NCBI GenBank assembly: GCA_903913785.1
Contig: CAIWMF010000066.1
Span: 1 to 38,149 of the forward strand
Length of the DNA: 38,149 nt
Direction of reading: 5' to 3'
From: an uncultured Spartobacteria bacterium
GTDB taxonomy: Bacteria > Verrucomicrobiota > Verrucomicrobiia > Chthoniobacterales > UBA6821
The stretch's first letter is position 1; every line of letters starts with the position of its first letter. Of this stretch, positions 2,700-31,851 are shown in pieces. The notes below the pieces were generated by a model. The model was not told the DNA's origin and did not search any database. It saw only the letters and a list, made by a program, of their open reading frames with translations. The translations under genes and the position numbers were made by a program.

Positions 2700-2711
2700 G
2701 AAATATCCGGA
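2700..2711. repeat. Solo terminal-repeat remnant of the mosaic element family, abutting a TTAA that contains the E1-beta stop codon
   Basis: GAAATATCCGGA followed by TTAA (2712-2715) matches the element end GAAATATCCGGG|TTAA with one mismatch. It fills most of the 17-nt gap between the HAD start (2694) and the E1-beta stop (2712-2714). Confidence 0.4.
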
Positions 2712-3698
2712 TTAAAGCTTGAGCAAGTGATGCAGCGCAGAAGCGATCGTCGAGGCTGTGGGCCGATGTGTTCCCCAGAGCGCAGGATGAAAGGGGACGG
2801 GTGTGTCTTTTGCATTGAGGCGCTGGGGAGGGGCATCTAGAAGCCCAAAACCCTCTGCGGTCACGCGTGCGATGACTTCAGCGGCAACACCACTCCACGG
2901 GAACGCTTCACTCACAACTAAGAGGCGTCCTGTCCGTGCTACGGAAGCTAAGATGGTATCAGTGTCCAGGGGTTTTACAGATCGGAGATCGACCACTTCA
3001 ATTTCATACCCATCATGGGCTAATGCTGCAGCAGCAGCTAATGATTCATGGAGCATGGCACTATAGGTCACAAGGGTGGCATCACGACCAGGGCGTGTGA
3101 CCCGTGCCTTATTAGACGGGAGCGCGCATGTGGGAAGTGCCTCGGCTTTGAGATGATAATAGAGAAATTTATGCTCACAAAAAATCACTGGATCATCGAT
3201 AGTAATGGCCTCGAGAAGCATTGTGTAGGCGTCTTCAACGGTCCCTGGAGTCATGACCACAAGCCCAGGAAAATGGGCATAAATAGCCTCTAGGCTTTGA
3301 CTGTGAAAGGGGCCGCCGCCAGAAGTTCCTCCGCACGGCAGGCGCACGACAAGAGGGCAAGGGACTTCTGTTCGATAAAACAAGGTTGCTGCATGATTGA
3401 CAATTTGGTTCAAACCACAGGTCGAAAAATCGGCAAACTGCATTTCAATAATGGGTCGCATTCCCTCAATCGCAGCGCCAATAGCCATGCCAATCATAGC
3501 ATCTTCACTAATTGGAGCGTCCATGACGCGGCCAGGGAATTGCTTGGCAAGATTTTTTGTGGCTTTAAAAGCTCCTCCAAAAGCACCTACATCCTGGCCA
3601 TAAATAAACACCCTAGAATCTTCTTCTAGTGCTCGTGCCTGGGCTGCACGAATTGCCTCAAGGTAAGTAATGCTCGTCATGTTAGTTTGTGAGATCAT
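2712..3698 (-). CDS. 2-oxoacid (pyruvate/branched-chain) dehydrogenase E1 component, beta subunit
   Basis: 328-aa ORF with the typical transketolase-like pyrimidine-binding region (RVMDAPISEDAMIGMAIGAAIEGMRPIIEMQFADF) and C-terminal domain. Its length is typical of E1-beta. Confidence 0.85.
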   Translation of the reverse strand: MISQTNMTSITYLEAIRAAQARALEEDSRVFIYGQDVGAFGGAFKATKNLAKQFPGRVMDAPISEDAMIGMAIGAAIEGMRPIIEMQFADFSTCGLNQIVNHAATLFYRTEVPCPLVVRLPCGGTSGGGPFHSQSLEAIYAHFPGLVVMTPGTVEDAYTMLLEAITIDDPVIFCEHKFLYYHLKAEALPTCALPSNKARVTRPGRDATLVTYSAMLHESLAAAAALAHDGYEIEVVDLRSVKPLDTDTILASVARTGRLLVVSEAFPWSGVAAEVIARVTAEGFGLLDAPPQRLNAKDTPVPFHPALWGTHRPTASTIASALHHLLKL

Positions 3699-3748
3699 AG
3701 GAGATGCGCATTAGAAAATAGTAGATATCGAGAAGATGTCGAGATCTA

Positions 3749-3972
3749 GCCCGAATATTTCACACTTGATCACCTGCGGAGACCGGGAAGTCAGATGGAT
3801 GTTGCGTTAGACTCACATGGTGACTTGGGCAACACCAGTGCTCGTCTCGCCCTTTCAGGGCTGCCCCTAACCTAACGGTTACGGCAGTCTCCCCCGCGGT
3901 CTCTTGGGCCGCCGGTGGTACCCCATCCTAGCTTCGCAGCCTCCTCGTCACGATCAGTATGAAATATGCGGG
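3749..3972 (+). repeat. Mosaic TIR element, copy 1 (224 bp; L arm + M3/M4 module + R arm)
   Basis: Starts CCCGAATATTTCACAC and ends GTATGAAATATGCGGG. The first ~90 bp are near-identical to 8908-8997. The flanks are CTAG (3745-3748) and TTAC. Confidence 0.85.
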
Positions 3973-4064
3973 TTACAACCAGGATAAAAAATAATGAGTT
4001 GTTTCTTTTGCCAGCTTCATGTAAAGCAGTGCACCGCCATTTATAAAAAATATAAAAAAATTCT

Positions 4065-6131
4065 ATGTTTAACCTCATGCAACTCTCGAAGAACGGTATT
4101 CATCTTGCTATGATCTGTGGATCCTTTGGCATTATTGTGGCCCTTGTTCTTATTCGCTCCATTCTTAAAGCGCCGGCTGGCACCCGCAAAATGGGTACTA
4201 TTGCAGCAGCTATTGAGGAGGGTGCTAAGGCTTATCTCAATCGACAAATCACTGCTATTTCTCTCATTGCAGTCGTGATTTTTGGAGCGCTTCTCTACTT
4301 CAAAGGACAAACGACTTCGACTGGTTTTATTATTGGTGCTGTTTGTTCGCTTGCGGCAGGATACGTTGGCATGCGCATTGCTGTGGTTGCCAATCTTCGA
4401 ACCGCCGCAGGAGCTTTGCTCTCACGTCATACAGCCATGCGCATGGCATTTAGTGGTGGAGCAGTGACTGGCTTGTTAGTGGTGGGTCTTGCGCTCCTAT
4501 CAGTTGGAGGATTTTTTGTCTTAGCATCTCAACTCTTAGGTGAGGCAGAAGCTGTGAGTAGCCTCATTGGCCTCGCGTTAGGAGCAAGCCTAATTAGCGT
4601 ATTTGCACGTCTTGGTGGTGGCATCTACACGAAGGCAGCTGATGTTGGAGCCGATCTTGTGGGTAAAATTGAACAAAATCTCGATGAAGATGATCCCCGC
4701 AATCCTGCTACTATTGCTGATAATGTCGGCGATAATGTGGGTGACTGTGCAGGAATGGCTGCTGATGTTTTTGAAACCTATGCGGTGAGTTTAATTGGGG
4801 CCATCTTTGTTGGTTTTCTGACATTGAAATCGACTCCTGCGGCAATGATTTATCCCTTCGTGCTTGGTGGTATTTCTGTGATTGGTTCCATTTTTGCTAT
4901 TTTCTATGTGAATGCTTCCAAGCAAAAACCAGGAGCCTCACTCATCACTGCAGTTGTTTTAAATGTACTTTTTTCAGCAGTTTTATTTTATCCGGCGACA
5001 AAGCTTCTTTTTCCAACGGCAATAGCAAGCACCGACAAAATTCTAACCGCCAATGGTCTCTATGCATCTGCACTCATTGGGCTGGTGATGACGGCGATTA
5101 TTGTGCTGATCACAAATTATTTTACATCGACTCATTATGAACCTGTACGCCGTATTGCACGTGCCTCTGAAACTGGTCATGGAACCAATATCATTGCTGG
5201 TATTGCTGTAGGTAACCATGCGACTGTTCTGCCAGCGATATTTATTATTGCTGCAATCCTGGGTAGTTTTCAACTTGCGGGACTCTATGGTGTGGCCGTA
5301 GCCGTCATGAGCATGCTCTCGCTATCAGGTATTGTGATCTCACTGGATGCTTTTGGTCCTATCACCGATAATGCTGGTGGCATTGCCGTCATGAGTGAAT
5401 CTCCCAAGTCAGCACGGCAGATCACCGATGAGCTTGATGCTGTAGGTAACACCATGAAGGCCGTGACAAAAGGATATGCCATTGCCTCCGCGGGTCTTGC
5501 AGCATTAGTTCTCTTTGGATCCTATGTTGAAGAGCTTAGAAATCACATGAATGGCGCCATGGCCTTAGCTTTTTCACTTTCTGATCCACGCGTTATTGCA
5601 GGCCTCTTGATTGGAGGGCTTCTTCCGTTTGTTTTTTCTGCCTTTAGTATCGATGCCGTTGGTAAGGCAGCAGGAGCTGTGGTCTTAGAAGTGCGTCGTC
5701 AACTCAAATTGCACCCTGGAATTCTCACTGGCAAAGATACTCCTGAGTATGGAACCTGTGTTGACATTGTCACTAAAGCGGCACTGCGCGAGATGATTAT
5801 TCCTGCACTGCTCCCGATTGGTACGGTTGTTGCTGTCGGCTTTATCCCATGGCTAGGTGCAGTTGCTCTAGGAGGAGTCCTAGTAGGTACGATTGTCACA
5901 GGGCTTTTTCTTGCCATCTCGATGACCTCTAGTGGTGGGGCATGGGACAATGCTAAGAAATATATTGAAGAAGGCAACCATGGTGGAAAAGGCTCCTCGG
6001 CTCACTCTGCTGCGGTGACCGGTGATACGGTGGGTGATCCGTATAAAGATACGGCGGGACCTGCCATTAATCCAATGATTAAGGTCGTTAATATTGTCGC
6101 TATTTTGCTTGTTCCACTTTTATTTAAGTAA
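4065..6131 (+). CDS. hppA: Membrane-bound H+-translocating pyrophosphatase, K+-independent type
   Basis: 688-aa polytopic ORF with PPase motifs [37 protein letters not shown] and [27 protein letters not shown] carries Lys at the position that distinguishes K+-independent from K+-dependent enzymes. Confidence 0.9.
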
Positions 6132-6145
6132 ATGAGATCTTCTAG

Positions 6146-6451
6146 CCAGGATATTTGAGACCAATCTACTGCGAAGACCGAGAAGGAAAGGTAGATGATG
6201 TATGAGACTCATATTGTGACTTGGGGAGGGCTGTAGACAGACAGCCTTGCTTCAAAATGTTCGTCTGTGTTGACTCGCTTGGCGAAGCCCGTCTCACCCT
6301 TTGAAGCTCTGCCTCAAAGAAAAAAAGAAAGAAAAAAAAGAGAGAGAGCCTACAAACTCTGAGTAGTCTCCCACGCGCTCTCTTTGGGCTGCCGGGGGTG
6401 CCCCATCAGCCTTCGCAGTCTCCTCGTTACGATCAGTATGAAATATCCGGG
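6146..6451 (+). repeat. Mosaic TIR element, copy 2 (306 bp, long form with a degenerate left TIR)
   Basis: The left end CCAGGATATTTGAGACC is degenerate and the right end GTATGAAATATCCGGG is intact. It is colinear with copy 3 (6860-7160) over its whole length and contains a 33-nt all-purine tract at 6316-6348. The left flank is CTAG. Confidence 0.8.
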
Positions 6452-6511
6452 TTTAAGTGACTTTGAAAAGAGGTTCTTAAAGATGGTCTCATACAGGGGC
6501 CTTAATTTTTA

Positions 6512-6859
6512 ATGTTTATGAACTCAATGACTCATTCCTCACCTTTGCCGCCACCCAAGCAAGTAGCCATGATTAGTGATCAACTCGCACTAGCATGGAC
6601 AGATGGAACAGAGCAATATCTCTCGCTACGCACATTGCGTAGAGCATGTCCTTGTGCAGCATGCATGGGTGAGCCTGATGTCATGGGGAATAAACTCTCT
6701 TTAGGAAAAAAAAAATACACCGCGGAGAGTTCTCTCTTAAGAAAATATGAATTTGTAGGAGCCTATGCATTGCAGTTTTTCTGGGGTGACGGGCATAGCA
6801 GTGGCATCTATGCATTTGAGTATTTAAAAAATGGATTTCTTGACCAACGCTACGGCTAA
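6512..6859 (+). CDS. DUF971 family protein (gamma-butyrobetaine hydroxylase-like N-terminal domain)
   Basis: 115-aa ORF with the characteristic LRRACPCAACMGE Cys cluster and FFWGDGHSSGIY. Its stop TAA (6857-6859) is immediately followed by the element TIR. Confidence 0.6.
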   Translation: MFMNSMTHSSPLPPPKQVAMISDQLALAWTDGTEQYLSLRTLRRACPCAACMGEPDVMGNKLSLGKKKYTAESSLLRKYEFVGAYALQFFWGDGHSSGIYAFEYLKNGFLDQRYG

Positions 6860-7160
6860 CCCGAATACTTCACACTCATCTACTGCGGAGACCGGGAAGC
6901 TAGGGTGGATGCTGCGCTCAAACTCACATTATGACTTGGTGAGGGCTGTACACATACAGCCCGGTATCAAAATGCTGGGTCTGCGTTGACTCGGCTTAGC
7001 GAAGCTCGTCTTGCCCTTTGAAGGGCTGCTTCAAAGAAAGAGAAATAGATAGAGAGTCTGTAAACTCTGGGCAGTCTCCACCCTCAATCTCTTGGGCCGC
7101 CGGTGGTGCCCCATTAGCCTTCGCGGCTTCTTTGTCACGATTAGTATAAAAATATCCGGG
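6860..7160 (+). repeat. Mosaic TIR element, copy 3 (301 bp, long form)
   Basis: Starts CCCGAATACTTCACAC and ends GTATAAAAATATCCGGG. The internal order is hairpin GGGCTGTACACATACAGCCC, then hairpin CTTTGAAG-GGCTG-CTTCAAAG, then a purine-rich tract, then a GC-rich module, then the R arm. Confidence 0.85.
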
Positions 7161-8454: not shown

Positions 8455-8504
8455 AAAAGTCCTCTTTCCTTTCGGCTCACGGAGCTCGCTCTTCGAGTCT
8501 TCTT

Positions 8505-8794: not shown

Positions 8795-8905
8795 CCCGAA
8801 TGTTTCACACTAAAGCTATTATGGCTTGTGGAAAGCTCTATGGCTACTGTGTTCGCAGATCTTACGTTATCATTGGATAGCGTCTCGATCTTAGGCCTTG
8901 TGCTT
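8795..8905 (+). repeat. Diverged half-element (variant left arm) directly abutting copy 4
   Basis: CCCGAATGTTTCACACTAAAGCTATTATGGCTTGTGGAAAGCTC aligns with the reverse complement of the right arm of the 21119-21295 copy (CCCGCATATTTCACACTAAATCTATTACGGCTTGTGGAAAGCTC). Confidence 0.65.
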
Positions 8906-8907: not shown

Positions 8908-9177
8908 CCCGGATATTTCACACCGATCACCTGCGGAGACCGGGAAGTCAGATGGATCTTGCGTTAGACTCACATTGTGACTTGGGCAACACCAGTGTTC
9001 GGGAGAGCCTGGGGTAGACAGCCGTAACCGTTAAGGTTAGGGGCAGCCCGTAAGGGCGAGCCGAGCAGGTGCGAGCGAGTCAATAGGGACACATACAGCC
9101 GTCGTCAGACTTCATCACTCGCCTTGCCCCATCAGCCTTCTCGGCCTCCTCGTCACGATCAGTATGAAATATCCGGG
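8908..9177 (+). repeat. Mosaic TIR element, copy 4 (270 bp; internal 68-bp module inverted relative to copy 1)
   Basis: Starts CCCGGATATTTCACAC and ends GTATGAAATATCCGGG, with TTAA on both flanks (8904-8907 and 9178-9181). Segment 8998-9065 is the reverse complement of 3841-3908. Confidence 0.9.
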
Positions 9178-9248
9178 TTAAGAAAAAATCACTGTGCTTC
9201 TAACGCTCTCTTCTCAATTTAAGACACTATAATAAGCTTTGCACTGCA

Positions 9249-9280
9249 CCTCATGACGATTCAGTATGAAATATTCTGGC
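9249..9280 (+). repeat. Partial R-arm fragment of the element family
   Basis: CCTCATGACGATTCAGTATGAAATATTCTGGC compares with the consensus R arm CCTCGTCACGATCAGTATGAAATATCCGGG. Confidence 0.6.
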
Positions 9281-9312: not shown

Positions 9313-10596
9313 ATGCATTCTTTTCATTACATTAATAGCGTTCTGCATTGTGAAGGAGTTGACCTAGAAAGCTTGTCTCAAGAGGTTGGGACACCTGCCT
9401 ATGTCTACTCTGCAAGAACCATTCGTGATCATTTTCGTGCTCTTCAAAAAGCCCTTGGGTCTCTCCCTCATCGGCTCTGTTATGCGGTGAAGGCCAATAG
9501 CAATCTTGCCATTCTACGTTTGTTAAAAGAGGAGGGAGCCGGATTTGATATTGTTTCTGGAGGGGAACTCTTTAAAGTCCTCAAAGCAGGCGGGAGTGCG
9601 GGTCAGTGCACCTTTGCAGGAGTGGGCAAGATGCCTCATGAAATTGAGTACGCGCTAGGCGAGGGGGTTTACTCCTTCAATGTGGAGTCAGAAGGAGAGC
9701 TCGACCTCATCAATGCCATTGCCGGAAGACTAGGCTGCAAGGCCCCTATCGCCCTGCGTGTCAATCCTGATGTCGATACGCCAACACATCACTACATTTC
9801 TACAGGGAGACATAAAAATAAATTTGGCATCGGTCTTGATCGTGCAGAGTCGCTCTATGAACGAGCCGCCTCCTTACCTCATCTCAAGATCCGCGGCATT
9901 CAAACCCACATTGGCTCTCAAATTCTCCGCGCAGCGCCTTTCCTGGAGGCTATCGAGAAACTCACGCCGCTCGTGCAAAGAATTCAGGCACGCTATGCCT
10001 TAGAATTTTTTAGTATTGGGGGCGGTCTTGGGATTGTTTATCAAGGGGCACTTGCAAGTGGCGATGCCGCGTGGTGGGCTCAAGAAAGCAGAGGGGAGAA
10101 GCTTTCTGCGCACGACTACGCACGTCACATTCTCAAACCACTCGAGCAGCTCAATCTCCCCATTTTCTTAGAGCCAGGGAGGTTTCTCGTTGGCAATGCC
10201 GGAGTCTTACTCACAAAAGTCCTCTACCGCAAAGAGACGCCCGAGAAAAACTTCCTCATCGTCGATGCCGGGATGAATGATCTCATTCGCCCTGCACTCT
10301 ACCAAGGGCATCATGATCTTGAGCCGCTTGTGGCACCTGATGATCGTCCCTTGGAAAAGATCGATGTTGTTGGTCCTGTCTGTGAAAGTGGTGATTTTTT
10401 TGCCCAAGATCGCAGACTCCCTCGTATGGAGGAGGGAGAGCATCTTGCCGTCATGAGTGCAGGCGCCTATGGCCTCGTCATGGCATCGAACTACAATGCC
10501 CGTCCCTTACCACCAGAAATCCTCGTTAACGGCAGCACCGCCTCCCTTGTACGTCGTCGCCAGAGCTGGGAAAATCTCGTACGTGAAGAAATCTAA
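9313..10596 (+). CDS. lysA: Diaminopimelate decarboxylase
   Basis: 427-aa ORF with the PLP-lysine motif CYAVKANSNLAIL, plus GGGLGI, EPGRFLVGNAG and CESGD. Confidence 0.9.
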   Translation: MHSFHYINSVLHCEGVDLESLSQEVGTPAYVYSARTIRDHFRALQKALGSLPHRLCYAVKANSNLAILRLLKEEGAGFDIVSGGELFKVLKAGGSAGQCTFAGVGKMPHEIEYALGEGVYSFNVESEGELDLINAIAGRLGCKAPIALRVNPDVDTPTHHYISTGRHKNKFGIGLDRAESLYERAASLPHLKIRGIQTHIGSQILRAAPFLEAIEKLTPLVQRIQARYALEFFSIGGGLGIVYQGALASGDAAWWAQESRGEKLSAHDYARHILKPLEQLNLPIFLEPGRFLVGNAGVLLTKVLYRKETPEKNFLIVDAGMNDLIRPALYQGHHDLEPLVAPDDRPLEKIDVVGPVCESGDFFAQDRRLPRMEEGEHLAVMSAGAYGLVMASNYNARPLPPEILVNGSTASLVRRRQSWENLVREEI

Positions 10597-10649
10597 CCCG
10601 GATATTTCATGCCTTATCGTGACGAAGAGGCTTGCAAAGGCTGATGGGC
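10597..10649 (-). repeat. Solo R arm (inverted orientation) fused to the lysA stop codon
   Basis: CCCGGATATTTCATGCCTTATCGTGACGAAGAGGCTTGCAAAGGCTGATGGGC is the reverse complement of the R-arm consensus. It starts immediately after TAA at 10594-10596, and the rest of the element is absent. Confidence 0.75.
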
Positions 10650-10837
10650 TAGAGTAGAGCAATATTTTATTGCCATAAAGTTTTGCTCACTATTATCATC
10701 GTCTTCATGTCGATCTTTTCGATCGAGCCGGTCTCATCCTTACAAGACTCCCAAGAAGGGCAACCGGCAGAAAAATAACAAGCTCAAACCCGGTCGCGGT
10801 ACAACGCATCGGAAGTCACAAAAACCAAAAAAACGAT

Positions 10838-11413
10838 ATGTTAGGTTCTCTGCGTACAGTGGCTGGTAATGCAGGTAGTATGATTAAGGGTATGCCTGGC
10901 CGCTTCTCTCAACGTCTTAGGGGTGCTGACAATCAGTTTGAAGAGCGATATGCCCCAGAACTGAAAAACGTTAAAGCACAATTTGGCGAAACGGATGATA
11001 GGTATAAAAATTATTGTGAGCACGTAAAAGCACAGTATGACTATTCTTATAAGCACAGTTGGAATTCTGTTATATCTGTTGAGGATGAAGATGCCCTGAT
11101 GTTGAATCATGCATTAGCTCAATCAGAGGCCTCAAAGGCCGAGGCAGAAAAAAACACTTTTGCTTCTCTCAACATTACAACAGTAACCTCAGCATACGAT
11201 GATGATGATGAGACTTCTTCCTTAAGTAGTAGACTTAGTTTAAACAGCAGCTCGTCGCGCTCTAGATCAAACTCGACGTCATCGGTTGATTCCTCAATGA
11301 GTGAAGACTCAGATGATGATGGTTTAGGATATCGGAGCTCTAGATCCAGCTTCGCAAGCGACAGCAGTCTACCCCCCTCTTCCTCTTCCTCGTCCTCCGG
11401 AGAGGAAGAGTAG
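10838..11413 (+). CDS. Hypothetical protein with a UIM-like helix and a Ser/Asp/Glu-rich low-complexity tail
   Basis: 191-aa ORF. I recognise no enzyme motifs. It contains EDEDALMLNHALAQSEASKAE followed by DDDDETSS..SSSSRSRSNSTSS..SSSSSSGEEE. Confidence 0.5.
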   Translation: MLGSLRTVAGNAGSMIKGMPGRFSQRLRGADNQFEERYAPELKNVKAQFGETDDRYKNYCEHVKAQYDYSYKHSWNSVISVEDEDALMLNHALAQSEASKAEAEKNTFASLNITTVTSAYDDDDETSSLSSRLSLNSSSSRSRSNSTSSVDSSMSEDSDDDGLGYRSSRSSFASDSSLPPSSSSSSSGEEE

Positions 11414-11794: not shown

Positions 11795-12232
11795 CTAATT
11801 AAGAGGATTGATCACTTTGAGGAAGTCAAATTTTCGAAAGTCAGTGTCTGCAGAGTAGATGGTTTTAACACCATGTTGTCGCAGGATTGCTGCTAGATGC
11901 GCATCAGAAACAAGGTTCCCGCGGACATGAAGCCCCTTAGTTGTGTGTGCATAGTGCTCGGCGAAACCTTCTTCTTCTCCAATCATTCTGACCTGAGGCA
12001 AAGCAAGCAAATCGTCAATATTTTTCCACGCTTCTTGAGGGGTAAGAGGAATAGGAAAAACGCTCGGGTGTGTTGTCATTCTTTGATAGCTCATTAACGT
12101 CATCCATGGCAGGAAGAGAAGTTCAGACTCATTGAGTTTCTCATCAAGAAAAGAAATTGCTTGTTGTTGGCAATCTTTGTCGCCTGGATTAGAAGCATAG
12201 ACAAAAATATTAACATCAATAGAGTAGCTCAT
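11795..12232 (-). CDS. vapC: PIN-domain ribonuclease toxin, VapC family
   Basis: 145-aa ORF with an N-terminal acidic residue context SIDVNIFVYA and C-terminal LVSDAHLAAILRQHGVKTIYSADTDFRKF, typical of VapC. It overlaps the upstream antitoxin ORF by 4 nt. Confidence 0.8.
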   Translation of the reverse strand: MSYSIDVNIFVYASNPGDKDCQQQAISFLDEKLNESELLFLPWMTLMSYQRMTTHPSVFPIPLTPQEAWKNIDDLLALPQVRMIGEEEGFAEHYAHTTKGLHVRGNLVSDAHLAAILRQHGVKTIYSADTDFRKFDFLKVINPLN

Positions 12233-12646: not shown

Positions 12647-14887
<2,241 letters not shown>

Positions 14888-15063
14888 CCCGCATATTTCA
14901 TACCGATTCTGCTGCGGCTTGCGAACACCTGATGGATACTGCGTCAGCTTCGAATTGCTCCTCGGGCAGTATGAAACATACAGCCGTCGTCGCAATCCAT
15001 CACCTTCCTTTTCTAAATCAGGATTCGCGGCGCCTCGCGACGAATCAGTATGAAATATGCGGG
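14888..15063 (+). repeat. Mosaic TIR element, copy 6 (176 bp)
   Basis: Starts CCCGCATATTTCATAC immediately after the ligA TAA and ends GTATGAAATATGCGGG. Its interior shares ACATACAGCCGTCGTC..CATCAC with copy 4. Confidence 0.85.
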
Positions 15064-15137: not shown

Positions 15138-17918
15138 ATGCGTTATCGTGATACTGTTTCTTTACCCAAAACTGATTTCCCCATGAGGGCAGGGCTCGCC
15201 ACGCGTGAGGTAGAAATCCTCGCCCGCTGGAATCGAGAAAATATTTATGATCATATTCAGCAGGCTCGAGAAGGCTCGCCGCGTTACATCCTTCATGATG
15301 GGCCTCCCTTTGCCAATGGGAAGGTGCATATGGGCACTGCCTTAAATAAGCTCATCAAGGATTTTGTGGTGAAGTCAAAAACGATGTCTGGCTTTCAGGC
15401 TCCCTATATTCCTGGTTGGGATTGTCATGGACTTCCTATTGAATTTAAAGTCGTGCAATCCTCGGAGGGTCTCACTCCTCTTGAGATTCGCAAAAAATCC
15501 GAAGCCTACGCGCGTTCCTTTATTGATATTCAGCGTCAGGATTTTAAACGCTTAGGCGTCTTTGGGGATTGGGAGAATCCTTATCTCACACTTGATCCTG
15601 CCTACGAAGCTCAGATCATTCGCTCGTTTGGCAAGATTGTTGAACATGGGCTCGTCTACCGCAGCAAGAAGCCGGTCCATTGGAGTACGGGCGCTCAGAC
15701 CGCACTAGCAGAGGCGGAGATTGAATATCAGGAAAAGACATCTCCAGCCATTTATGTCGCCTTTCCTTGCAATCTTTCAGACAGCTTGGAGAGCGCTGAA
15801 GTATTGCGTAGCTCTTTGAGTCAAGAGCATCAAAGAGCTTTAGAAAATACGAATATTCTCATCTGGACAACGACTCCATGGACCTTGCCTGCGAATGTGG
15901 CTATTGCGCTTAAAGCCGATGCGACCTACGTCATTTTGCATGCACGGAAAAAAGAGAGTGCCCTTTTAGAATCCCAATACCTCGTTGCAGAAGCCCTCGT
16001 TGAAAAAATCTGTGAGGCCTGTGCCCTAGAAAAAATTTCCCTTGGACCCACCTTCTTAGGAAAAGAGCTCGAGGGGATGAGTGTGCAGCATCCTTTCTTG
16101 CGACGTAGGGCGACGCTTCTGTGTGCTGACTTTGTGACCCTCGATACCGGCACTGGCCTTGTGCACATCGCTCCCGGGCACGGTGAAGACGACTATGCCT
16201 TAGGGATGAAACATCATTTACCCCTTCTCTCGCCTGTAGATGATGCTGGTTGTTATACGCAGGAGTGCGGTCTTGCGCAGCTTATCGGCAAGCACGTCTT
16301 TGCTGGCAATCAAGAGATTATCGATTTGCTCGCCGCTCATGGGCTGCTACTCGGACATCACGACCACATTCATAGCTATCCGCATTGTTGGCGCTCGAAA
16401 ACCCCGATTCTCTTTCGAGCTGTGGAGCAATTTTTTATTAATATTTCTAAGCTTCGTGAACAAGCGCTCCATGCTATTGATGAAGTTGTGTGGCTGCCTC
16501 ATTGGGGACGCAATCGTATTCGTGGTACTGTGGAAAATCGTCCGGATTGGTGTATCTCGCGTCAACGCTCTTGGGGGGTCCCTTTGCCTGTTTTTTATGA
16601 TCAAGAAGATCAGCCTATTTTAGATCCTGCGATCATTAGTAAGGTTGCCGAAGTCATTGCCGAACACGGTTCTAATGCATGGTTCTCTCTAGATGATGCC
16701 ACATGGTGTGAGCTTGTCGGAGCGCCTAAGGGATCAACCCGTCGTTATGATACTCTTGATGTCTGGATTGATAGTGGTGTGAGTCATGAAGCCGTCTTGC
16801 GCACGAGGCAAGAATTGGACTTTCCAGCAGACCTCTACCTAGAGGCGACCGACCAGCATCGTGGTTGGTTTCAATCCTCACTCATGACTTCGATCGCGCT
16901 CCATGGTCTTGCCCCTTATAAAAGCGTCCTCACCCATGGCTACGTTGTGGATGTCGATACACGTGAGAAAATTTCAAAATCCAATCAAGGCACCCCTGGC
17001 TACCACAAACCAACGGAAGTAGAGCACTTTATTAAGACCTATGGCGCTGATATTGTGCGGCTCTGGGCGAGTAGCATTCAGATTACGGATGATGTTCCTT
17101 TTTCTGAGGAGATTTTTGCTCGTGTCACCGATGCGTATAGACGCTTGCGCAATACACTCCGGGTTCTTTTAGGAAATATCACTGGATATGACCGAGATGC
17201 GTCTCCGGTGGAACCAAGCGGCATTGACGCGTGGATCCTCGCGCGTCTCCAACAGGTCGTTAATATCTGCCGGGAAGCTTATGATGAGTTTGCCTTTCAG
17301 CGCGTGTATCACACTATTAACCAATTTTGCACCGTTGACTTGAGCAGCCACTACATTGATGCCACTAAGGACCGGCTCTACTGTGATCAAAAGAGCTCAG
17401 TGCGTCGTCGATCCACTCAGGCAACAATGGCAACTGTTTTTGAGACACTCACGCGTCTCCTGGCCCCAATCCTGGTCTTTACTGCTGAAGAAGCTTGGGG
17501 GCATTATTGCTCTACAAGCTCCATTCATGTAGAACTTTTCCCGCAAGTAAGACCAGTCGACGAGGCTCTCTTGGAGCGCTATGACAAGCTTTTTGCCTTG
17601 CGCGCAGAGATTGCACAAGCCCTAGAAAAAGCACAACATGACGGGCTTATTTCCAATCCACTCGAGGCACGCGTGATGGTCACAACAGAAGAGGCAAGCC
17701 TTTTACAAAGTGTTGCAACTCCCGAGGCTCTTGCCCAGATCGAAGAACTCTTTATCCTAAGCCATCTTGAAATCAGCCAAGGAGAGGAGCGTATCACTAT
17801 TGCAAAACAGACTGCCCAAAAATGTGAACGCTGTTGGCGTCATCGAGACGATGTCGGGAAGCATCAAGTGCACCCAACCTTGTGTAGCCGGTGCTTCGCA
17901 GCTGTTGAAGAAAGATAA
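15138..17918 (+). CDS. ileS: Isoleucyl-tRNA synthetase (bacterial type 1 with C-terminal zinc finger)
   Basis: 926-aa ORF with the HIGH-region PPFANGKVHMGT, a KMSKS-like KISKS and C-terminal CERCWRH..CSRC. Confidence 0.92.
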   Translation: MRYRDTVSLPKTDFPMRAGLATREVEILARWNRENIYDHIQQAREGSPRYILHDGPPFANGKVHMGTALNKLIKDFVVKSKTMSGFQAPYIPGWDCHGLPIEFKVVQSSEGLTPLEIRKKSEAYARSFIDIQRQDFKRLGVFGDWENPYLTLDPAYEAQIIRSFGKIVEHGLVYRSKKPVHWSTGAQTALAEAEIEYQEKTSPAIYVAFPCNLSDSLESAEVLRSSLSQEHQRALENTNILIWTTTPWTLPANVAIALKADATYVILHARKKESALLESQYLVAEALVEKICEACALEKISLGPTFLGKELEGMSVQHPFLRRRATLLCADFVTLDTGTGLVHIAPGHGEDDYALGMKHHLPLLSPVDDAGCYTQECGLAQLIGKHVFAGNQEIIDLLAAHGLLLGHHDHIHSYPHCWRSKTPILFRAVEQFFINISKLREQALHAIDEVVWLPHWGRNRIRGTVENRPDWCISRQRSWGVPLPVFYDQEDQPILDPAIISKVAEVIAEHGSNAWFSLDDATWCELVGAPKGSTRRYDTLDVWIDSGVSHEAVLRTRQELDFPADLYLEATDQHRGWFQSSLMTSIALHGLAPYKSVLTHGYVVDVDTREKISKSNQGTPGYHKPTEVEHFIKTYGADIVRLWASSIQITDDVPFSEEIFARVTDAYRRLRNTLRVLLGNITGYDRDASPVEPSGIDAWILARLQQVVNICREAYDEFAFQRVYHTINQFCTVDLSSHYIDATKDRLYCDQKSSVRRRSTQATMATVFETLTRLLAPILVFTAEEAWGHYCSTSSIHVELFPQVRPVDEALLERYDKLFALRAEIAQALEKAQHDGLISNPLEARVMVTTEEASLLQSVATPEALAQIEELFILSHLEISQGEERITIAKQTAQKCERCWRHRDDVGKHQVHPTLCSRCFAAVEER

Positions 17919-17943
17919 AAACTCGATCAATATAATTTTTTTT

Positions 17944-18399
17944 ATGACATCCCCGCTCTACTTTATCCCTATTGTTTTTTTATTAGTTGCTCTTGATCAG
18001 CTCACCAAGCTGCTTGTCCTCTGTGCTATTCCCCTCTATGGAACGCTCAAAATCATTCCTGGAATTTTTTATCTCACCCACCTCTACAATACGGGAGCGG
18101 CTTTTGGGATGATGCATGATAGCAATCGGTTTTTTATGATTGTTTCCCTTGCTGCCTTATTGATCTTATTTTGGCAGCGTCATCATTTTGTAGCACTCTC
18201 CTTGCAGCTCGGCTGGGTCTTATTGCTGAGTGGTATCCTTGGGAACCTTACGGATCGAATTTTCAGGGGGCATGTCGTTGATTTTTTAGGCGTGCAGATT
18301 TGGAATTATTATTGGCCGCCCTTTAATGTGGCCGATACCTGCATTTGTATGGCGACGGGCTTTTTTTTACTTAGCGCCTTTTCCTCTCAACGAAAATAG
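17944..18399 (+). CDS. lspA: Lipoprotein signal peptidase (signal peptidase II)
   Basis: The start is placed at Met60 of the tracked ORF (MTSPLYFIPIVFLL), because the upstream part overlaps ileS. Motifs are NTGAAFG, VVDF and FNVAD. The ileS-lspA order is canonical. Confidence 0.85.
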   Translation: MTSPLYFIPIVFLLVALDQLTKLLVLCAIPLYGTLKIIPGIFYLTHLYNTGAAFGMMHDSNRFFMIVSLAALLILFWQRHHFVALSLQLGWVLLLSGILGNLTDRIFRGHVVDFLGVQIWNYYWPPFNVADTCICMATGFFLLSAFSSQRK

Positions 18400-18406
18400 C
18401 AGGAGG

Positions 18407-18535
18407 AGTGTGAAATATGCGGGCTAGGCGGGTGAAGGATTATAATGCTGGGCTATCTGTATAACACACCTCCCAAATCACTATTCGAGACCAACGCAGT
18501 AATAGAGTCAAATGACGTTGAAATGAACCGCCGAG
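18407..18535. repeat. Rearranged debris of the element family
   Basis: A solo TIR AGTGTGAAATATGCGGG lies 8 nt after the lspA stop. In addition, 18447-18512 (GGGCTATCTGTATAACACACCTCCCAAATCACTATTCGAGACCAACGCAGTAAT) is homologous to 21196-21250. Confidence 0.6.
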
Positions 18536-19013: not shown

Positions 19014-19097
19014 AATAAGTGTTTTGTCATTGGATTTTCTGGCTCTTTACCCGTCTTTTCGTCAGTAAACCTTGCACTGCGCCTTAAGACACTTCGG

Positions 19098-19112
19098 TAT
19101 GAGATATTTGGG
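19098..19112. repeat. Degenerate solo TIR abutting the stop codon of the cyclo-ligase gene
   Basis: GTATGAGATATTTGGG compares with the consensus GTATGAAATATGCGGG (3 mismatches). It is followed directly by CTA, which is the minus-strand TAG stop at 19113-19115. Confidence 0.3.
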
Positions 19113-19883
19113 CTACGTGCAAGGGCTCTCACCGATTGCAACCACGTAATCCATGCAAATATCATGGGGCTCTTTTGGTACGTCTAAGACAAGTTGCCAT
19201 GGCCATGCGATGCCTGTTTTAAGGCCCCTCCATCGTGAGTCACCTAAGAGTCGATCATAAAAACCACCGCCACGTCCTAGTCGTCCGCCTGTATGATCAA
19301 AGGCAAGTCCTGGGATTAGCCCCACATCTACCTCTTCAAGTGATGCCTCTTTCCAGGTTTTAGGATCTGGTTCTTGAATGCCATAAGATCCTTGGACCCA
19401 ATTGGCATCTCGGTTCCATTGATAGAGGTGTAGTTTTTCGTGATAGATACGAGGGAAAAGAAGCTTCTTTTTTTGCAAGGTTTCTAACCATGATTGCTCG
19501 TTGCACTTAGGAATATGAAAGATCGAGTGTAATAAAATGAGAGGATCGGGCTCCCCGGGGAGTGGCGCATAGAGTAGGATCACTGAAGCATTGTTCCAGT
19601 CAGGAACTTTGATCTTCACGATTTCATCAAACTTAGATGACCTTTTTGAGGTGATGCGCTCTTTCTCACCATGCGATAAAAAAGCGCATCCTTGCTGATG
19701 AGTCGTTGCGTGCAGAGGCTGTTGCTTTTTTAATAAAGTCCGCATGGTCGACCTCATGAGCTCTTTTTCTCTGAGCCTAAGCAAGTCATGATGATCGTGG
19801 TGAGAATATTGTTTTTTTAATTCCCGATTCATACAACTCTTTGAGGACATGGGAGTGAAGGAGGCGAAGATATTCCGTGGCAT
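19113..19883 (-). CDS. 5-formyltetrahydrofolate cyclo-ligase family protein
   Basis: 256-aa ORF with LLYAPLPGEPDP and the C-terminal signature IPGLAFDHTGGRLGRGGGFYDRLL. The N-terminus is longer than usual, so the true start may be an internal Met (e.g. 19832). Confidence 0.7.
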   Translation of the reverse strand: MPRNIFASFTPMSSKSCMNRELKKQYSHHDHHDLLRLREKELMRSTMRTLLKKQQPLHATTHQQGCAFLSHGEKERITSKRSSKFDEIVKIKVPDWNNASVILLYAPLPGEPDPLILLHSIFHIPKCNEQSWLETLQKKKLLFPRIYHEKLHLYQWNRDANWVQGSYGIQEPDPKTWKEASLEEVDVGLIPGLAFDHTGGRLGRGGGFYDRLLGDSRWRGLKTGIAWPWQLVLDVPKEPHDICMDYVVAIGESPCT

Positions 19884-21118: not shown

Positions 21119-21295
21119 CCCGAATATTTCATACTCATCTACTGTGGAGACCGGGAAGCCTGATGGATGCTGCGCCCAAGCTCGAAGTCTTCCTCGGGCT
21201 GTATGTGTACATACCGCCCAAATCACAATTCGAGACCAACGCAGTAATTATGAGCTTTCCACAAGCCGTAATAGATTTAGTGTGAAATATGCGGG
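21119..21295. repeat. Mosaic TIR element, copy 8 (177 bp; L-type arms at both ends)
   Basis: Starts CCCGAATATTTCATAC and ends GTGTGAAATATGCGGG, with TTAA on both flanks (21115-21118 and 21296-21299). The central hairpin is GGGCTGTATGTGTACATACCGCCC. Confidence 0.9.
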
Positions 21296-24536: not shown

Positions 24537-24612
24537 GCCGGCATAGCTCAGTTGGTAGAGCAGCTGATTTGTAATCAGCCGGTCGTCGGTTCGAGTCCGA
24601 CTGCCGGCTCCA
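24537..24612 (+). tRNA. tRNA-Thr (anticodon UGU), with CCA encoded
   Basis: Cloverleaf read by eye. Acceptor GCCGGCA/TGCCGGC, D arm GCTC-AGTTGGTA-GAGC, anticodon arm GCTGA-TTTGTAA-TCAGC (anticodon TGT), T arm GTCGG-TTCGAGT-CCGAC, discriminator T, then CCA. Confidence 0.9.
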
Positions 24613-28263: not shown

Positions 28264-28271
28264 TAGCTTGA

Positions 28272-28448
28272 CCCGGATATTTCATACTGATCGTGACGAG
28301 GAGGACGCGAAGGCTGATGGGGTAAGGCAGACGAACATTTTGACGCCGGGCTGTATGTGTCCATACCGCCCAAGTCACAATGTGAGTCTAACGCAGGATC
28401 CACCCTAGCTTCCCGGTCTCCGCAGGTGATCGGTGTGAAATATTCGGG
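28272..28448 (-). repeat. Mosaic TIR element, copy 9 (177 bp, inverted orientation)
   Basis: Starts CCCGGATATTTCATACTGATCGTGACGAGGAGG (R arm, reverse complement) and ends ..CCGCAGGTGATCGGTGTGAAATATTCGGG (L arm, reverse complement). The flanks are TTGA and TTAA. It is roughly 90% identical by eye to 31674-31851. Confidence 0.9.
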
Positions 28449-28648: not shown

Positions 28649-29995
28649 ATGTTTGACACGATTGCCGCTATTGCCACACCACCAGGATCAGGAGCCATTG
28701 TTCTTATCAGGATTTCTGGTTCTGAGGCCATTGATATTGCACAAAAAATTTTTCAAGGAAGCACCTCTCCCACCAAGATGCAATCACGCTATACCTATTT
28801 TGGAAAAATCGTTGATCATGGAAGGGTGATTGATGAGGTCTTGCTCACTATTTTTCATGCTCCCAAGAGTTATACCGGTGAAGATGTCGTAGAAGTCAGT
28901 GGGCATGGCGGGGTATTCATTGCCGCCTGTCTTTTAGAAACTATACTTCAACAGGGAGCACGCCTGGCACGCCCTGGAGAATTCACGCAGCGAGCCTATC
29001 TGCACGGGAAAATGGATCTGACCCAAGCAGAAGCCGTGATGGATTTAATCACTGCTCAGACAGAGCATGCAGAGCGTGTTGCCTTAGAGCAACGTGCTGG
29101 AGCGTTAGGTCAAGAAATCAAAAAACTCAGAGAAGAACTCCTGCATGTCGTAGCGCACCTGGAGGCCTTTTTTGATTTTCCAGAAGATGATGTTGCTTCT
29201 GTTGATGGGCCCTTTTTGCGTGCTTCTATTGAAAGTGTCCGCAATCATCTTGTAAAATTATTAGCCACAGCAGAAGAAGGGCGTCTTTTACGTGAGGGGC
29301 TTTCGCTGGCGCTTTGTGGTGCTCCCAATGCTGGAAAGTCGAGTTTGCTCAATAAACTCTTACAAGTCGAACGCGCAATTGTCAGTCCTACTGCGGGGAC
29401 AACACGTGATACGATTGAGGAGATGGCAACCTTGGGGGGATTTCCCTTTCGTGTGATTGATACAGCAGGAATCAGGGCTACCGAGGATCTGATTGAACAC
29501 GAAGGGGTCCTGCGAGCACGGAATACAGCACAACATGCAGACTACACACTACATCTTGTCGATGCGACAGAATGTCATAGACCCATCGAACCCATTGCTT
29601 CCCATGAGTTATTAGTCTTGAACAAAATTGATTTAATCATCAATCGATCTTCTCTAGCTAAAATGCATCCTGATGCCGTCATGATTTCCTGTAACACGGG
29701 AGAGGGGATGGACGCATTAATCCCAGCACTTATGAAGCGTCTATTTGGCAATAAGGGATCTTTTACCGAGGAAGCGCCGTCAAGCTTCACTATCAATACA
29801 CGTCACAAGGTCTGTCTTAAGCGTGCTTTAGATGCGATTCAAAAAGCCTTGATCTTGGAAGCCGCGCAAGAACCTCTCGAGTTATTAGCAATCGAGCTTC
29901 GTGCTGCTTTGAATGCCATTGGTGAGGTAACAGGAGAGGTTAATTCTGAGGAAATCTTAGGCACTATTTTTAGTACGTTTTGTATTGGAAAGTAA
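28649..29995 (+). CDS. mnmE: tRNA modification GTPase MnmE
   Basis: 448-aa ORF with the N-terminus DTIAAIATPPGSGAI, G1 GAPNAGKSSLLN, DTAG and the C-terminal CIGK tetrapeptide. Confidence 0.92.
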   Translation: MFDTIAAIATPPGSGAIVLIRISGSEAIDIAQKIFQGSTSPTKMQSRYTYFGKIVDHGRVIDEVLLTIFHAPKSYTGEDVVEVSGHGGVFIAACLLETILQQGARLARPGEFTQRAYLHGKMDLTQAEAVMDLITAQTEHAERVALEQRAGALGQEIKKLREELLHVVAHLEAFFDFPEDDVASVDGPFLRASIESVRNHLVKLLATAEEGRLLREGLSLALCGAPNAGKSSLLNKLLQVERAIVSPTAGTTRDTIEEMATLGGFPFRVIDTAGIRATEDLIEHEGVLRARNTAQHADYTLHLVDATECHRPIEPIASHELLVLNKIDLIINRSSLAKMHPDAVMISCNTGEGMDALIPALMKRLFGNKGSFTEEAPSSFTINTRHKVCLKRALDAIQKALILEAAQEPLELLAIELRAALNAIGEVTGEVNSEEILGTIFSTFCIGK

Positions 29996-30011
29996 TATCC
30001 GGGCTAGGCCA

Positions 30012-30100
30012 AGTGATGAGTAAAGGGTAAAGAGTGATGGGTTCTTTGTTCACTCTCTCTTTATATTGACTCATTACTCGCAACCCATTACTCATTACTC
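30012..30100. repeat. Imperfect palindrome built from AGTRATGRGT motifs, followed by a T-rich run
   Basis: GAGTGATGGGTT (30032-30043) pairs with AACCCATTACTC (30082-30093) through 11 Watson-Crick pairs and 1 G:U pair. There is an inner hairpin AGAGTGA..TCACTCT, and TTTATTTTTTTT follows at 30101-30112. A related AATAATGGGTTATGGGTTA lies upstream of mnmE at 28550-28568. Confidence 0.4.
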
Positions 30101-30114
30101 TTTATTTTTTTTAA

Positions 30115-30909: not shown

Positions 30910-30966
30910 CCCGGATATTTCACACTGATCACCTGTGGAGACTGGAAGGCGTATGAAATATGCGGG
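30910..30966 (+). repeat. Mosaic TIR element, mini-copy (57 bp: L TIR + 23 nt + R TIR)
   Basis: The sequence is CCCGGATATTTCACACTGATCACCTGTGGAGACTGGAAGGCGTATGAAATATGCGGG. It is bounded by the TAG of the upstream gene and by TTA(A), which is the nth stop on the minus strand. Confidence 0.9.
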
Positions 30967-31647
30967 TTAAAGGATTGTTGCGCTTGGACAAAGCTGCCTT
31001 AACTCGCAGTTCTCGCAATCTGGCTTGCGGGCAGAACAACGTCTTCTTCCGTGCCAAATAAGCCAGTGACTGAGAATGCCCCACTCCTCTTTTTTAAAAA
31101 GTTTCATGAGATCAATTTCAATTTTCACAGGTTCTTGATGTACGGTGAGTCCAAGACGTCGTGCAAGCCTTCCCACATGAGTATCCACAACAATACCCTC
31201 ATGAATATTAAAGGCATTACTTAAGACCACATTAGCTGTTTTTCTCCCGACCCCAGGTAATGCTGAGAGTTCTCTAAGAGATTGTGGAATAATGCCTCCA
31301 TGTCTTTCTATAATGACGGCAGCTGTTTTACGAATAGAACTCGCTTTATTGCGAAAAAAACCTGTGGAATGAACGATTTTTTCTAATGCGTCTTGCGAAA
31401 TCTCTGCATAATCATGCACGCAGCGACATCGTTCAAAAAGTAGAGGAGTCACTTGATTCACACGAACATCCGTACATTGAGCTGAGAGAATGGTTGCTAC
31501 AAGAAGCTCAAGAGGGTTTTTGTAATCAAGCTCGCAATGAGCATTAGCATACAAAATTTTTAGCTGTCTGCGTAAGGTTTGTGCTCTTTTGCCAAGACTC
31601 TTTGTCTGTGGGGCATTAGGGGTTAATTTGGGATAAGCTTGAGTCAT
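30967..31647 (-). CDS. nth: Endonuclease III (DNA glycosylase/AP lyase)
   Basis: 226-aa ORF with HhH-GPD LPGVGRKTANVVL and the [4Fe-4S] motif CSARKPDCENCELRQLC. Confidence 0.9.
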   Translation of the reverse strand: MTQAYPKLTPNAPQTKSLGKRAQTLRRQLKILYANAHCELDYKNPLELLVATILSAQCTDVRVNQVTPLLFERCRCVHDYAEISQDALEKIVHSTGFFRNKASSIRKTAAVIIERHGGIIPQSLRELSALPGVGRKTANVVLSNAFNIHEGIVVDTHVGRLARRLGLTVHQEPVKIEIDLMKLFKKEEWGILSHWLIWHGRRRCSARKPDCENCELRQLCPSATIL

Positions 31648-31653
31648 AGATAA

Positions 31654-31669
31654 GTGTGAAATATTCGGG
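31654..31669. repeat. Solo L-type TIR, head-to-head with the next copy across a shared TTAA
   Basis: GTGTGAAATATTCGGG | TTAA (31670-31673) | CCCGGATGTTTCATAC. It lies only 6 nt from the nth start codon. Confidence 0.75.
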
Positions 31670-31673
31670 TTAA

Positions 31674-31851
31674 CCCGGATGTTTCATACTGATCGTGACG
31701 AGGAGACTGCGAAGGCTGATGGGGTCAGGCAGACCCAGCATTTTGACGCCGGGCTGTATGTGTACATACCGCCCAAGTCACAATGTGAGTCTAACGCAAG
31801 ATCCATCCTAACTTCCCGGTCTCTGCAGTAGATCGGTATGAAATATGCGGG
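31674..31851 (-). repeat. Mosaic TIR element, copy 12 (178 bp, inverted orientation)
   Basis: Starts CCCGGATGTTTCATAC and ends GGTATGAAATATGCGGG, with TTAA on both flanks. It is colinear with copy 9. Confidence 0.9.

Follow-up and report, generated by a model that had tools for sequence, protein, structure and literature searches.

An abundant family of miniature inverted-repeat elements, probably of IS1380 type, that duplicate YTAR in uncultured freshwater Chthoniobacterales

The Correia elements of Neisseria and the ERIC/IRU elements of Enterobacteria are high-copy MITEs (miniature transposable elements with inverted repeats) that form long hairpins, occur in several size and sequence subtypes and lie next to or inside genes. 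In both cases, the parent transposase is missing from the host genome. Among autonomous insertion sequences, members of the IS1380 family characteristically generate a target duplication of 4-5 bp. IS1380 transposases serve as the prokaryotic outgroup of piggyBac, which duplicates TTAA with TTAG/CTAA variants and has terminal repeats starting with CCC, giving CCC...GGG ends (PMC10813416). In this study, we analysed the 38,149-nt contig CAIWMF010000066.1 (assembly GCA_903913785.1; the whole stretch is called the window below) from a population of uncultured freshwater Chthoniobacterales (Verrucomicrobia). A preliminary description of this DNA had reported intergenic, modular elements bounded by a common terminal inverted repeat. 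We conclude, with a probability of roughly 85%, that these elements are a high-copy, non-autonomous MITE family with IS1380-type ends that duplicates YTAR. The literature yielded no description of these MITEs or of IS1380-derived MITEs, and neither IS1380 nor Verrucomicrobia appears in a 2024 review on the MITEs of prokaryotes; the family is new and belongs to a known kind of element.

The 16-nt terminal repeat CCCGSATATTTCAYAC has 21 matches in the window with at most two mismatches, compared with 0.04 expected from dinucleotide-preserving shuffles, and the inverted repeats at the ends of the copies are 16-21 nt long. All nine two-ended copies of the preliminary description are present at the coordinates given there, with two corrections; the first copy begins at 3750, base 3749 being the G of its CTAG flank. 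The left end at 6146 and the right end at 7160 are degenerate, and both were recovered by a profile hidden Markov model (HMM) built from 85 relatives. The same model recovered six of the eight solo or partial ends; those at 2700 and 29994 are end remnants of 10-11 nt, for which chance occurrence was estimated over 76 kb of two-strand sequence at ~0.01-0.02 each. The size classes, the occurrence of copies in both orientations and the TTAA on both flanks of the copies at 8908, 21119 and 31674 had been described correctly. The elements cover ~2.25 kb, or 5.9% of the window, near the 6-7% first given and slightly under it. Copies are small (48-306 bp) and carry no transposase, and none of the window genes encodes one (38 kb), as the earlier description had it and as was borne out by the gene survey and by tblastn with IS1380 transposases.

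The family extends far beyond the window. When the 21-mer CCCGVATATTTCAYACYGATC was scanned against reference genomes, one per species, at least 67 loci matched, and among the matches listed all but ~4 chance ones lie on separate contigs of four metagenome-assembled genomes (MAGs) labelled Chthoniobacterales or Verrucomicrobia (Xiphi-554, Tobar2m-G38, Deming_bin.170 and SMAG_U8253). Orthologous contigs of three of these MAGs share 72-79% identity with the coding regions of the window. Closer still are lake-metagenome contigs from ENA, one of which (L003; L numbers denote the loci compared) is identical to the window; L001 and L002 are 96.8-99.4% identical to it, and about 99% over most of the shared length. 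With 17 copies and remnants in the 38 kb of the window and at least 67 loci on dozens of contigs in four MAGs, a local duplication artefact, which would have undone the finding, is excluded. In the window and the related loci together (586 kb), 364 terminal-repeat matches resolve into 106 distinct two-ended copies; 176-178 bp is the commonest size class and 85 of the 106 fall into a single cluster of 166-183 bp.

The target site is well defined. The flanks of 313 ends have T at position -3 in 294 cases and A at -2 in 298, with a pyrimidine at -4 and a purine at -1, and the tetranucleotides are chiefly TTAA (139), CTAG (69), CTAA (31) and TTAG (28). The left and right flanks of 105 two-ended copies are TTAA/TTAA in 34, CTAG/CTAG in 15, CTAA/CTAA in 8 and TTAG/TTAG in 3, so that the two 4-bp YTAR flanks are identical in 60/105 copies. 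A second set, drawn from metagenome contigs and comprising 55 copies, has identical flanks in 34, including CTAA/CTAA in 8 and TTAG/TTAG in 3. A duplication of TA alone predicts ~46 copies in total with CTAA/TTAG or TTAG/CTAA flanks in the first set (estimate). Neither type was observed there, and a single inverted pair was found in the second set, compared with 16 CTAA/CTAA and 6 TTAG/TTAG direct repeats in both sets combined. The absence of the inverted pairs decides between the TA-only and the 4-bp model. Thus, the preliminary description, which had considered a TA or TTAA duplication, was right in that TTAA is the commonest flank; the duplicated unit is YTAR and not TA, used in the preference TTAA > CTAG > CTAA ≈ TTAG and duplicated as a 4-bp direct repeat. 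Flank pairs that differ by one base are spread evenly over all four positions, as expected from the decay of originally perfect 4-bp duplications. At one gene end, L037 has a single TTAA (the stop codon) without an element, L066 a 176-bp copy and the window a 57-bp copy, which supports the 4-bp YTAR duplication, with flanks that cannot be aligned on both sides at base resolution. Orthologous spacers without the element were also found for the sites 21119-21295 (L040, L049) and 6146-6451 (L045 of MAG Xiphi-554).

The terminal repeat links the family to IS1380 transposase genes. A metagenome scan with YTAR plus the terminal repeat gave at least 120 loci. Among the matches listed, a dozen inverted terminal-repeat pairs lie 1.57-2.24 kb apart; 11 enclose a transposase gene and one (L131) encloses none. 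At least 10 full-length elements, namely L141 (1974 bp), L137 (2035 bp), L146 (1753 bp) and at least seven more, have the same terminal repeat and YTAR flanks around such a gene. L141, L137 and L146 each encode one protein of 472-504 aa that matches NCBIfam NF033539 ('IS1380 family transposase', E 1e-103 to 1e-107) and Pfam PF13701 (about 1e-130). These profiles were run on the three elements, and the others are homologues by tblastn: with the three transposases as queries, at least 10 near-complete and several partial homologues were found, with 40-75% mutual identity, all adjoining the terminal repeat. The closest annotated plasmid relatives are IS1380-family transposases, including that of IS1380A at ~48% identity. 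The ends tell the same story. The MITE end of the window, CCCGGATATTTCACAC with YTAR flanks, starts with CC as the ends of the family do and is visibly homologous to the ends of an IS1380 element from Pseudomonas putida (CCCGCATTTCTCACAG...CTGTGAGAAATGCGGG, flanked by CTAG on both sides) and of IS1380A (repeat CGCGGAAATCTCACA, flank TCGA; TCGA is common to abutting IS1380A copies). The duplication of 4 bp in the MITEs, with CTAG/CTAG in the P. putida element, lies within the range of the family. Therefore, elements that could at first not be matched to a family have IS1380-type ends, and the IS630/Tc1-mariner-like enzyme proposed for them has to be replaced, since the transposases of the full-length elements that share this repeat and these flanks belong to the IS1380 family. 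A full-length insertion sequence with this repeat was thus found in metagenomes, and not in this lineage.

In the mechanism that we propose, a transposase would recognise the 16-21-bp terminal repeat CCCGNATATTTCAYAC, and the element would integrate at YTAR, in the order of preference given above, by a 4-bp staggered cut that would leave the target duplicated on both sides. A compatible transposase presumably exists or existed in the lineage, the copies are probably mobilised in trans and they are likely to be still active.

Several observations weigh against this interpretation. Neither the window nor ~0.5 Mb of related MAG loci nor the low-GC metagenome contigs among the matches listed yielded an IS1380 transposase, and hence an autonomous partner from the genome or lineage itself was not found; the full-length elements among these matches all lie on contigs of 53-69% GC. 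The transposase profile search matched at least 7969 clusters, and the named sources among the best 120 are only Acidobacteria and no Verrucomicrobia. When the subterminal arms of the MITEs were compared with 12 full-length elements, no similarity was detected past the 16-nt terminal repeat; the direct parent is thus not among these 12, and the copies could be immobile fossils. Identical 4-bp flanks were seen in only 3 of 11 full-length elements, the remaining ones being mostly one base apart and one differing at both outer bases. A duplication of YTAR is, furthermore, also a hallmark of IS5 (PMC10359306). Finally, four loci (L037, L040, L049 and L045) allowed filled and empty sites to be compared, and a clean pair with both flanks alignable at base resolution was not obtained among the related loci.

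A search of the ~0.5 Mb of MAG loci for the parent element, based on terminal repeats paired at distances above 600 bp, revealed none. Only two such pairs (3333 and 3468 bp) occur, and they were rejected: instead of one open reading frame (ORF) of transposase size, they enclose several separate ORFs on both strands, and neither of the two loci has a tblastn match to IS1380 transposases. In an all-versus-all comparison of the ORFs of these loci, the only recurrent 'proteins' were translations of MITEs. The 104 solo ends that were checked adjoin no transposase gene, and all are truncated, nested or contig-cut MITEs.

Other MITE families share the 16-nt repeat and the YTAR duplication. They measure 131, 211 and 228-247 bp and lie on contigs of 37-65% GC (L110 4260-4390 and 5116-5246; L151, L157, L180, L183; L112, L178; L129, L161). 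Further 176-bp families with related arms occur in other taxa (L098, L136, L144, L134). That unrelated MITE families of other taxa carry the same terminal repeat suggests that this IS1380 subgroup has spawned MITEs repeatedly.

The alignment of 85 copies contains conserved blocks (the terminal repeat, TGGATGCTGCG, a central GGGCAGTATGTACACATACAGCC hairpin, CGCCTT and CATCAGCCTTCGCG) with variable modules between them, and the modular make-up noticed in the window recurs across these relatives. By arm pair, the copies form the subfamilies A/A' (40 copies), B/B' (13) and C/C' (9). Another ~15 (about 15-20%) are chimeric, with the combinations A/B', C/A', A/C' and C/B' or with a left-type arm inverted at the right end, as in the window copy 21119-21295. 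For the long forms of the window (223, 270 and 301-306 bp), full-length relatives occur elsewhere (L050, L061, L062 and L079, of 264-301 bp, for 6860-7160; L043, L109 and L173 for 8908-9177); these forms are therefore true subfamilies with an extra internal module. The mosaic, which had been likened to that of bacterial interspersed mosaic elements (BIMEs), is real; it follows no separate principle and would be accounted for by nested insertion at YTAR sites in older copies, recombination or gene conversion between copies at the conserved blocks, and internal deletion of the long imperfect palindrome. Nesting is seen where the 270-bp copy 8908-9177 (TTAA/TTAA) sits in an older B/B' copy with ends at 8795 and 9279, and at several loci the terminal repeat is broken at an internal YTAR by another copy; this is direct evidence of transposition. 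Turnover is visible between strains. At the ligA site (14888-15063), L001 and L002, which are ~99% identical, have only a 30-bp A-type stub, and in the same contigs a 107-bp deletion has joined the B arm at 8795 directly to the interior of the nested copy. Minimal copies of 48-60 bp, which consist of two terminal repeats, recur in several genomes and probably arise by deletion across the palindrome.

Besides the two-ended copies, we observed a recurrent one-ended element of ~95-99 bp, in which a C'-type arm with the terminal repeat forms one end and a GC-rich hairpin block (…CCACCGGCGGTCGGGAGACCGCGGGGGAGACTGCCCTGGCT) the other (L045 4991-5085, L017 5243, L032 6448, L034 169, L040 1155, L053 5096, L062 319 and L066 2695). 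In most copies read, TTAA or TTAG lies beyond the GC-rich end, and the copy in L045 has TTAA on both sides. The GC block also occurs within the window copies 3750-3972, 6146-6451 and 6860-7160. One-ended or surrogate-end transposition is known for ISEcp1 and ISPme1 (PMC9330008), and one may speculate that the one-ended element reflects a similar process.

The family has copies in promoter regions, at the 3' ends of genes and, in relatives of the window, within coding sequence. Of 280 ends, 40 (14%) abut the stop of an ORF with 100 codons or more, compared with 1.8% of all YTAR sites; in the window, this concerns lysA, ligA, ORF 6512-6859, the cyclo-ligase gene and both ORFs around 30910-30966. 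YTAR contains TAA or TAG, so an insertion at a stop codon regenerates the stop, and many copies therefore abut gene ends. A separate mechanism that targets stop codons was considered and set aside, as the abutment is judged explicable by the YTAR target and selection against intragenic insertions in a compact genome. Relative to the flanking genes in tandem contexts, orientation is weakly biased (20 versus 9).

Inside genes, the 176-bp copies have a particular property. The frame YTA/RCC/CGN is stop-free in 41 of 84 copies on one strand and in 29 of 84 on the other, compared with 6.5% of shuffles; this holds for the 176-bp A and C subfamilies and not for the 178-bp B subfamily. A 176-bp copy with its 4-bp duplication adds 180 nt, i.e. 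exactly 60 codons without a stop, which lets these copies persist in-frame inside genes of related genomes, like the Rickettsia palindromic elements (RPEs). The profile HMM detected no intragenic copy in the window. In L053 (MAG Xiphi-554, WBXG01000017.1), aroB (2321-3799, minus strand; 3-dehydroquinate synthase) is an intact frame of 493 codons with one copy past residue ~30 and another in the C-terminal domain. All four intragenic DNA copies examined (two in aroB, one in hisD and one in an ORF of L019) are exactly 176 bp long; the flanks are CTAA/CTAA in one intragenic copy and CTAG/CTAG in another. Searched against 5.8 billion proteins, the element translation matches 104 protein clusters, ~40 of them with a Pfam domain, and 15 sequences were read. 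Clear internal inserts are present in IspD, squalene/phytoene synthase, PheT, a CAAX protease, a TsaB-like protein, TrmD and a NUDIX enzyme, and PheA has two tandem internal copies. The insert splits the IspD and SQS_PSY matches to Pfam and stretches the Rce1-like one, and the encoded peptides include RIFHTDRDEEAAKADG and SQMDAALDSHFDLDS. The 60-codon length, the frame that is stop-free on both strands and the same 176 bp in divergent hosts hint that the 176-bp subfamilies might be adapted to life inside genes and colonise the coding sequence of streamlined free-living bacteria, a suggestion that we put forward tentatively and regard as rather doubtful. In addition, a MITE copy interrupts a metagenomic protein (P0071, 287 aa, JGI), a transposase with an rve (integrase core) domain that belongs to another insertion sequence.

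Which enzyme moved the elements can be judged from flanks and ends. The invariant core of the flanks is TA, and the palindromic TTAA and CTAG flanks cannot separate a YTAR duplication from that of TA-targeting IS630/Tc1-mariner MITEs, in which TA alone would be duplicated and the outer Y and R would come from the element or from a target preference. The non-palindromic flanks, however, are direct repeats (CTAA/CTAA 8+8, TTAG/TTAG 3+3), the inverted pairs that this model predicts are nearly absent, and no IS630-type transposase is associated with the terminal repeat among the full-length elements, so such an origin is very improbable. A source in IS5, with MITEs moved by an IS5-type DDE transposase, would agree with the flanks, as the 4-bp YTAR duplication is the conserved IS5 target motif (PMC10359306). 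However, all transposase genes found between these terminal repeats are of the IS1380 family (NF033539/PF13701), and the repeat itself is homologous to the ends of IS1380A and the P. putida element; we therefore consider IS5 improbable, if slightly less so than IS630/Tc1-mariner. Hardly credible is a system related to repetitive extragenic palindromes (REPs) and BIMEs and moved by a REP-associated tyrosine (RAYT; IS200/IS605-like Y1) transposase. The high copy number, the mostly intergenic location and the palindromic, modular mosaic recall such systems, but the elements here are bounded by true terminal inverted repeats of 16 nt, duplicate 4 bp of the target, measure 176 bp or more versus 20-40 bp, lack the GTAG/CGTC head in the sequences read, and match autonomous elements that encode DDE IS1380 transposases.

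The strongest competitor of the transposon interpretation, itself unlikely, is that the copies are kept mainly as structured RNA or DNA (3'-UTR stabilisers, terminators or regulatory hairpins), their transposon features being secondary. Each subfamily folds over its full length into an imperfect rod, with an RNA minimum free energy of -71 to -83 kcal/mol and z of -6.5 to -7.5 (three window copies), and the three subfamily consensuses fold at -72 to -77 kcal/mol. Cognate left and right arms are more alike (0.62-0.66) than non-cognate ones (0.43-0.59), many copies lie directly past stop codons, and the weak orientation bias points the same way. In contrast, for the 85 copies together RNAalifold found practically no shared fold; the alignment of the three subfamily consensuses yields the rod, with 28 pairs invariant, only 6 of 58 compensatory and 21 broken in at least one subfamily. 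The chimeras, 15-20% of the copies, pair more weakly and fold less well, T-runs are absent, and copies lie in both orientations at promoter, 3'-end and coding positions. The share of ends at stop codons (14%) is close to that expected of YTAR targeting in a compact genome (estimate). Rfam has no family for the elements, and in the window only a tRNA gene (24537-24609, RF00005, 74 bits) reaches the gathering score. Thus, the evidence for selection on the fold is modest, and we judge the rod to be a property of the family and not proof of an RNA function.

The copies and remnants of the window, together with the intragenic copies of related loci, are listed in Table 1. The surrounding genes are ordinary housekeeping genes: pyruvate dehydrogenase (PDH) E1-beta, membrane pyrophosphatase, lysA, ligA, ileS, lspA, mnmA, ribBA, aspS, mnmE and an E2 acyltransferase.

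Table 1. Elements and remnants of the MITE family in the window, and in-frame copies in related loci.
Feature	Position	Strand	Evidence	Context
End remnant, 11 nt, GAAATATCCGG	2700..2710		Sequence reading; ~0.02 expected by chance (estimate)	Adjoins TTAA containing the stop codon of the PDH E1-beta gene (2712-3698, minus)
Two-ended long-form MITE, 223 bp	3750..3972	+	Repeat search, sequence reading, profile HMM	A-type left arm, internal GC-rich block, A'-type right arm; flanks CTAG, TTAC; between divergent PDH E1-beta and H+/Na+-pyrophosphatase genes
Two-ended long-form MITE, 306 bp, degenerate left repeat	6146..6451	+	Sequence reading, profile HMM	A arm, central hairpin, extra module (CTTTGAAG/CTTCAAAG hairpin, polypurine tract, GC-rich block), A' arm; begins 14 bp past the pyrophosphatase stop codon
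Two-ended long-form MITE, 301 bp	6860..7160	+	Sequence reading, profile HMM	Abuts the TAA stop of ORF 6512-6859
B-type left end of old B/B' copy	8795..8854	+	Repeat search, profile HMM	
Two-ended 270-bp MITE, TTAA/TTAA duplication	8908..9177	+	Sequence reading, HMM	Nested in older B/B' copy
B'-type right end of split host copy starting at 8795	9231..9279	-	Repeat search, HMM	
One-ended remnant, A'-type arm	10597..10663	-	Repeat search, profile HMM	Terminal repeat starts immediately past the TAA stop of lysA (9313-10596)
176-bp C/C' subfamily MITE	14888..15063	+	Repeat search, subfamily alignment	Immediately past the ligA TAA stop
Partial copy: terminal repeat and part of interior	18400..18502	-	Repeat search, profile HMM	Directly 3' of the stop of the signal peptidase II gene (17767-18399)
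One-ended remnant: B'-like arm and terminal repeat	19052..19112	+	Profile HMM	Abuts the TAG stop of the 5-formyltetrahydrofolate cyclo-ligase gene (19113-19883, minus)
177-bp chimeric MITE: B arm and inverted A arm, TTAA/TTAA duplication	21119..21295	-	Subfamily alignment	Between mnmA and ribBA
177-bp A/A' subfamily MITE	28272..28448	-		Divergent spacer, RCC1-repeat gene / mnmE
10-nt terminal-repeat remnant AATATCCGGG, then CTAG	29994..30003		~0.01 expected by chance (estimate)	Overlaps the mnmE stop codon
57-bp minimal copy: two terminal repeats, 25 bp between	30910..30966	+	Repeat search, sequence reading	Between convergent ORFs; CTAG and TTAA flanks contain both stop codons
Solo terminal repeat	31647..31669	-	HMM	Shares TTAA 31670-31673 with copy 31674-31851
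178-bp A/A' subfamily MITE, TTAA/TTAA duplication	31674..31851	-	Repeat search, HMM	
aroB	L053			Two in-frame copies; both Pfam domains intact around them
hisD	L009			One in-frame copy
1112-codon ORF	L019			One in-frame copy

Some further features of the window genes were observed. Within ORF 10838-11413, which has no family match, ~300 bp (10882-11181) are swapped for unrelated sequence in L001 and L002 (16709-16960 in L001), strains that are otherwise 98-99% identical; this strain-variable segment lies next to a VapC toxin gene (11795-12232, minus strand). LigA has a low-complexity insert of ~50 residues (residues ~125-175, window ~13030-13180) between its N-terminal domain and the adenylation motif and measures 743 residues in the window versus 731 in L001 and L002; the insert was considered as a MITE and rejected, as it has no MITE signature. 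The cyclo-ligase ORF (19113-19883, minus strand) has ~90 residues ahead of the start of its Pfam match, likewise with no MITE signature, and this extension may simply be an over-long ORF call. A relative, P0031 (306 aa), has two tandem MITE-encoded peptides at its N-terminus.

The family is an undescribed and very abundant one (~6% of the window) in a little-studied group of uncultured freshwater Verrucomicrobia, and its interest lies in the piggyBac-like YTAR targeting, the high density in the lineage and the RPE-like in-frame copies in relatives. Unlike for many bacterial MITEs, the transposase family can be named, a group of bacterial piggyBac relatives, and mobilisation is therefore testable. 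The elements also matter for annotation: assemblies break at them, predicted genes are lengthened or split by them, and the 'hypothetical proteins' to which they give rise are spurious. How enzymes tolerate selfish DNA in coding sequence can be studied on the in-frame copies in aroB, hisD, ispD, pheT and other genes. If the 176-bp subfamilies were indeed adapted to genes, many housekeeping enzymes would carry expressed inserts of 60 residues, and the RPE phenomenon would gain a second, independent case that experiments could trace.

Compared with known systems, the elements are closest to the IS1380 family (IS1380A, ISEcp1, ISPme1), with which they share a terminal repeat starting with CC(C) and homologous to the IS1380A and P. 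putida ends, a 4-bp, preferentially palindromic target duplication, and an identical 16-nt repeat around IS1380 transposase genes in metagenomes. They differ in their size of 48-306 bp without a transposase gene and in arms that match none of the 12 full-length elements, and no partner insertion sequence was found in the lineage. The TTAA duplication with TTAG/CTAA variants and the CCC...GGG ends are shared with piggyBac (PMC10813416). Like RPEs, to which they are likened by description and not by sequence, they are palindromes of ~150-180 bp that are stop-free in one frame and occur in-frame in unrelated housekeeping genes as well as between genes (PMC10969869). The hosts of RPEs are obligate intracellular Alphaproteobacteria, in contrast to the free-living freshwater Verrucomicrobia here, and the MITEs differ further in their clear terminal repeats, defined 4-bp duplication and identifiable transposase family, and in that the window contains no intragenic copy. 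Copy number, long hairpin, subtypes, gene proximity and an absent parent transposase are features in common with the Correia and ERIC/IRU elements. Correia elements, however, duplicate TA, have 26-bp terminal repeats and show no sequence relationship to this family, for which the transposase family can be named. An intergenic mosaic composed of a few recurring modules is shared with BIMEs. BIMEs consist of REPs of 20-40 bp, lack terminal repeats and a target duplication and are associated with RAYT enzymes, whereas the mosaic described here appears to arise from nesting, recombination and deletion within one transposon family.

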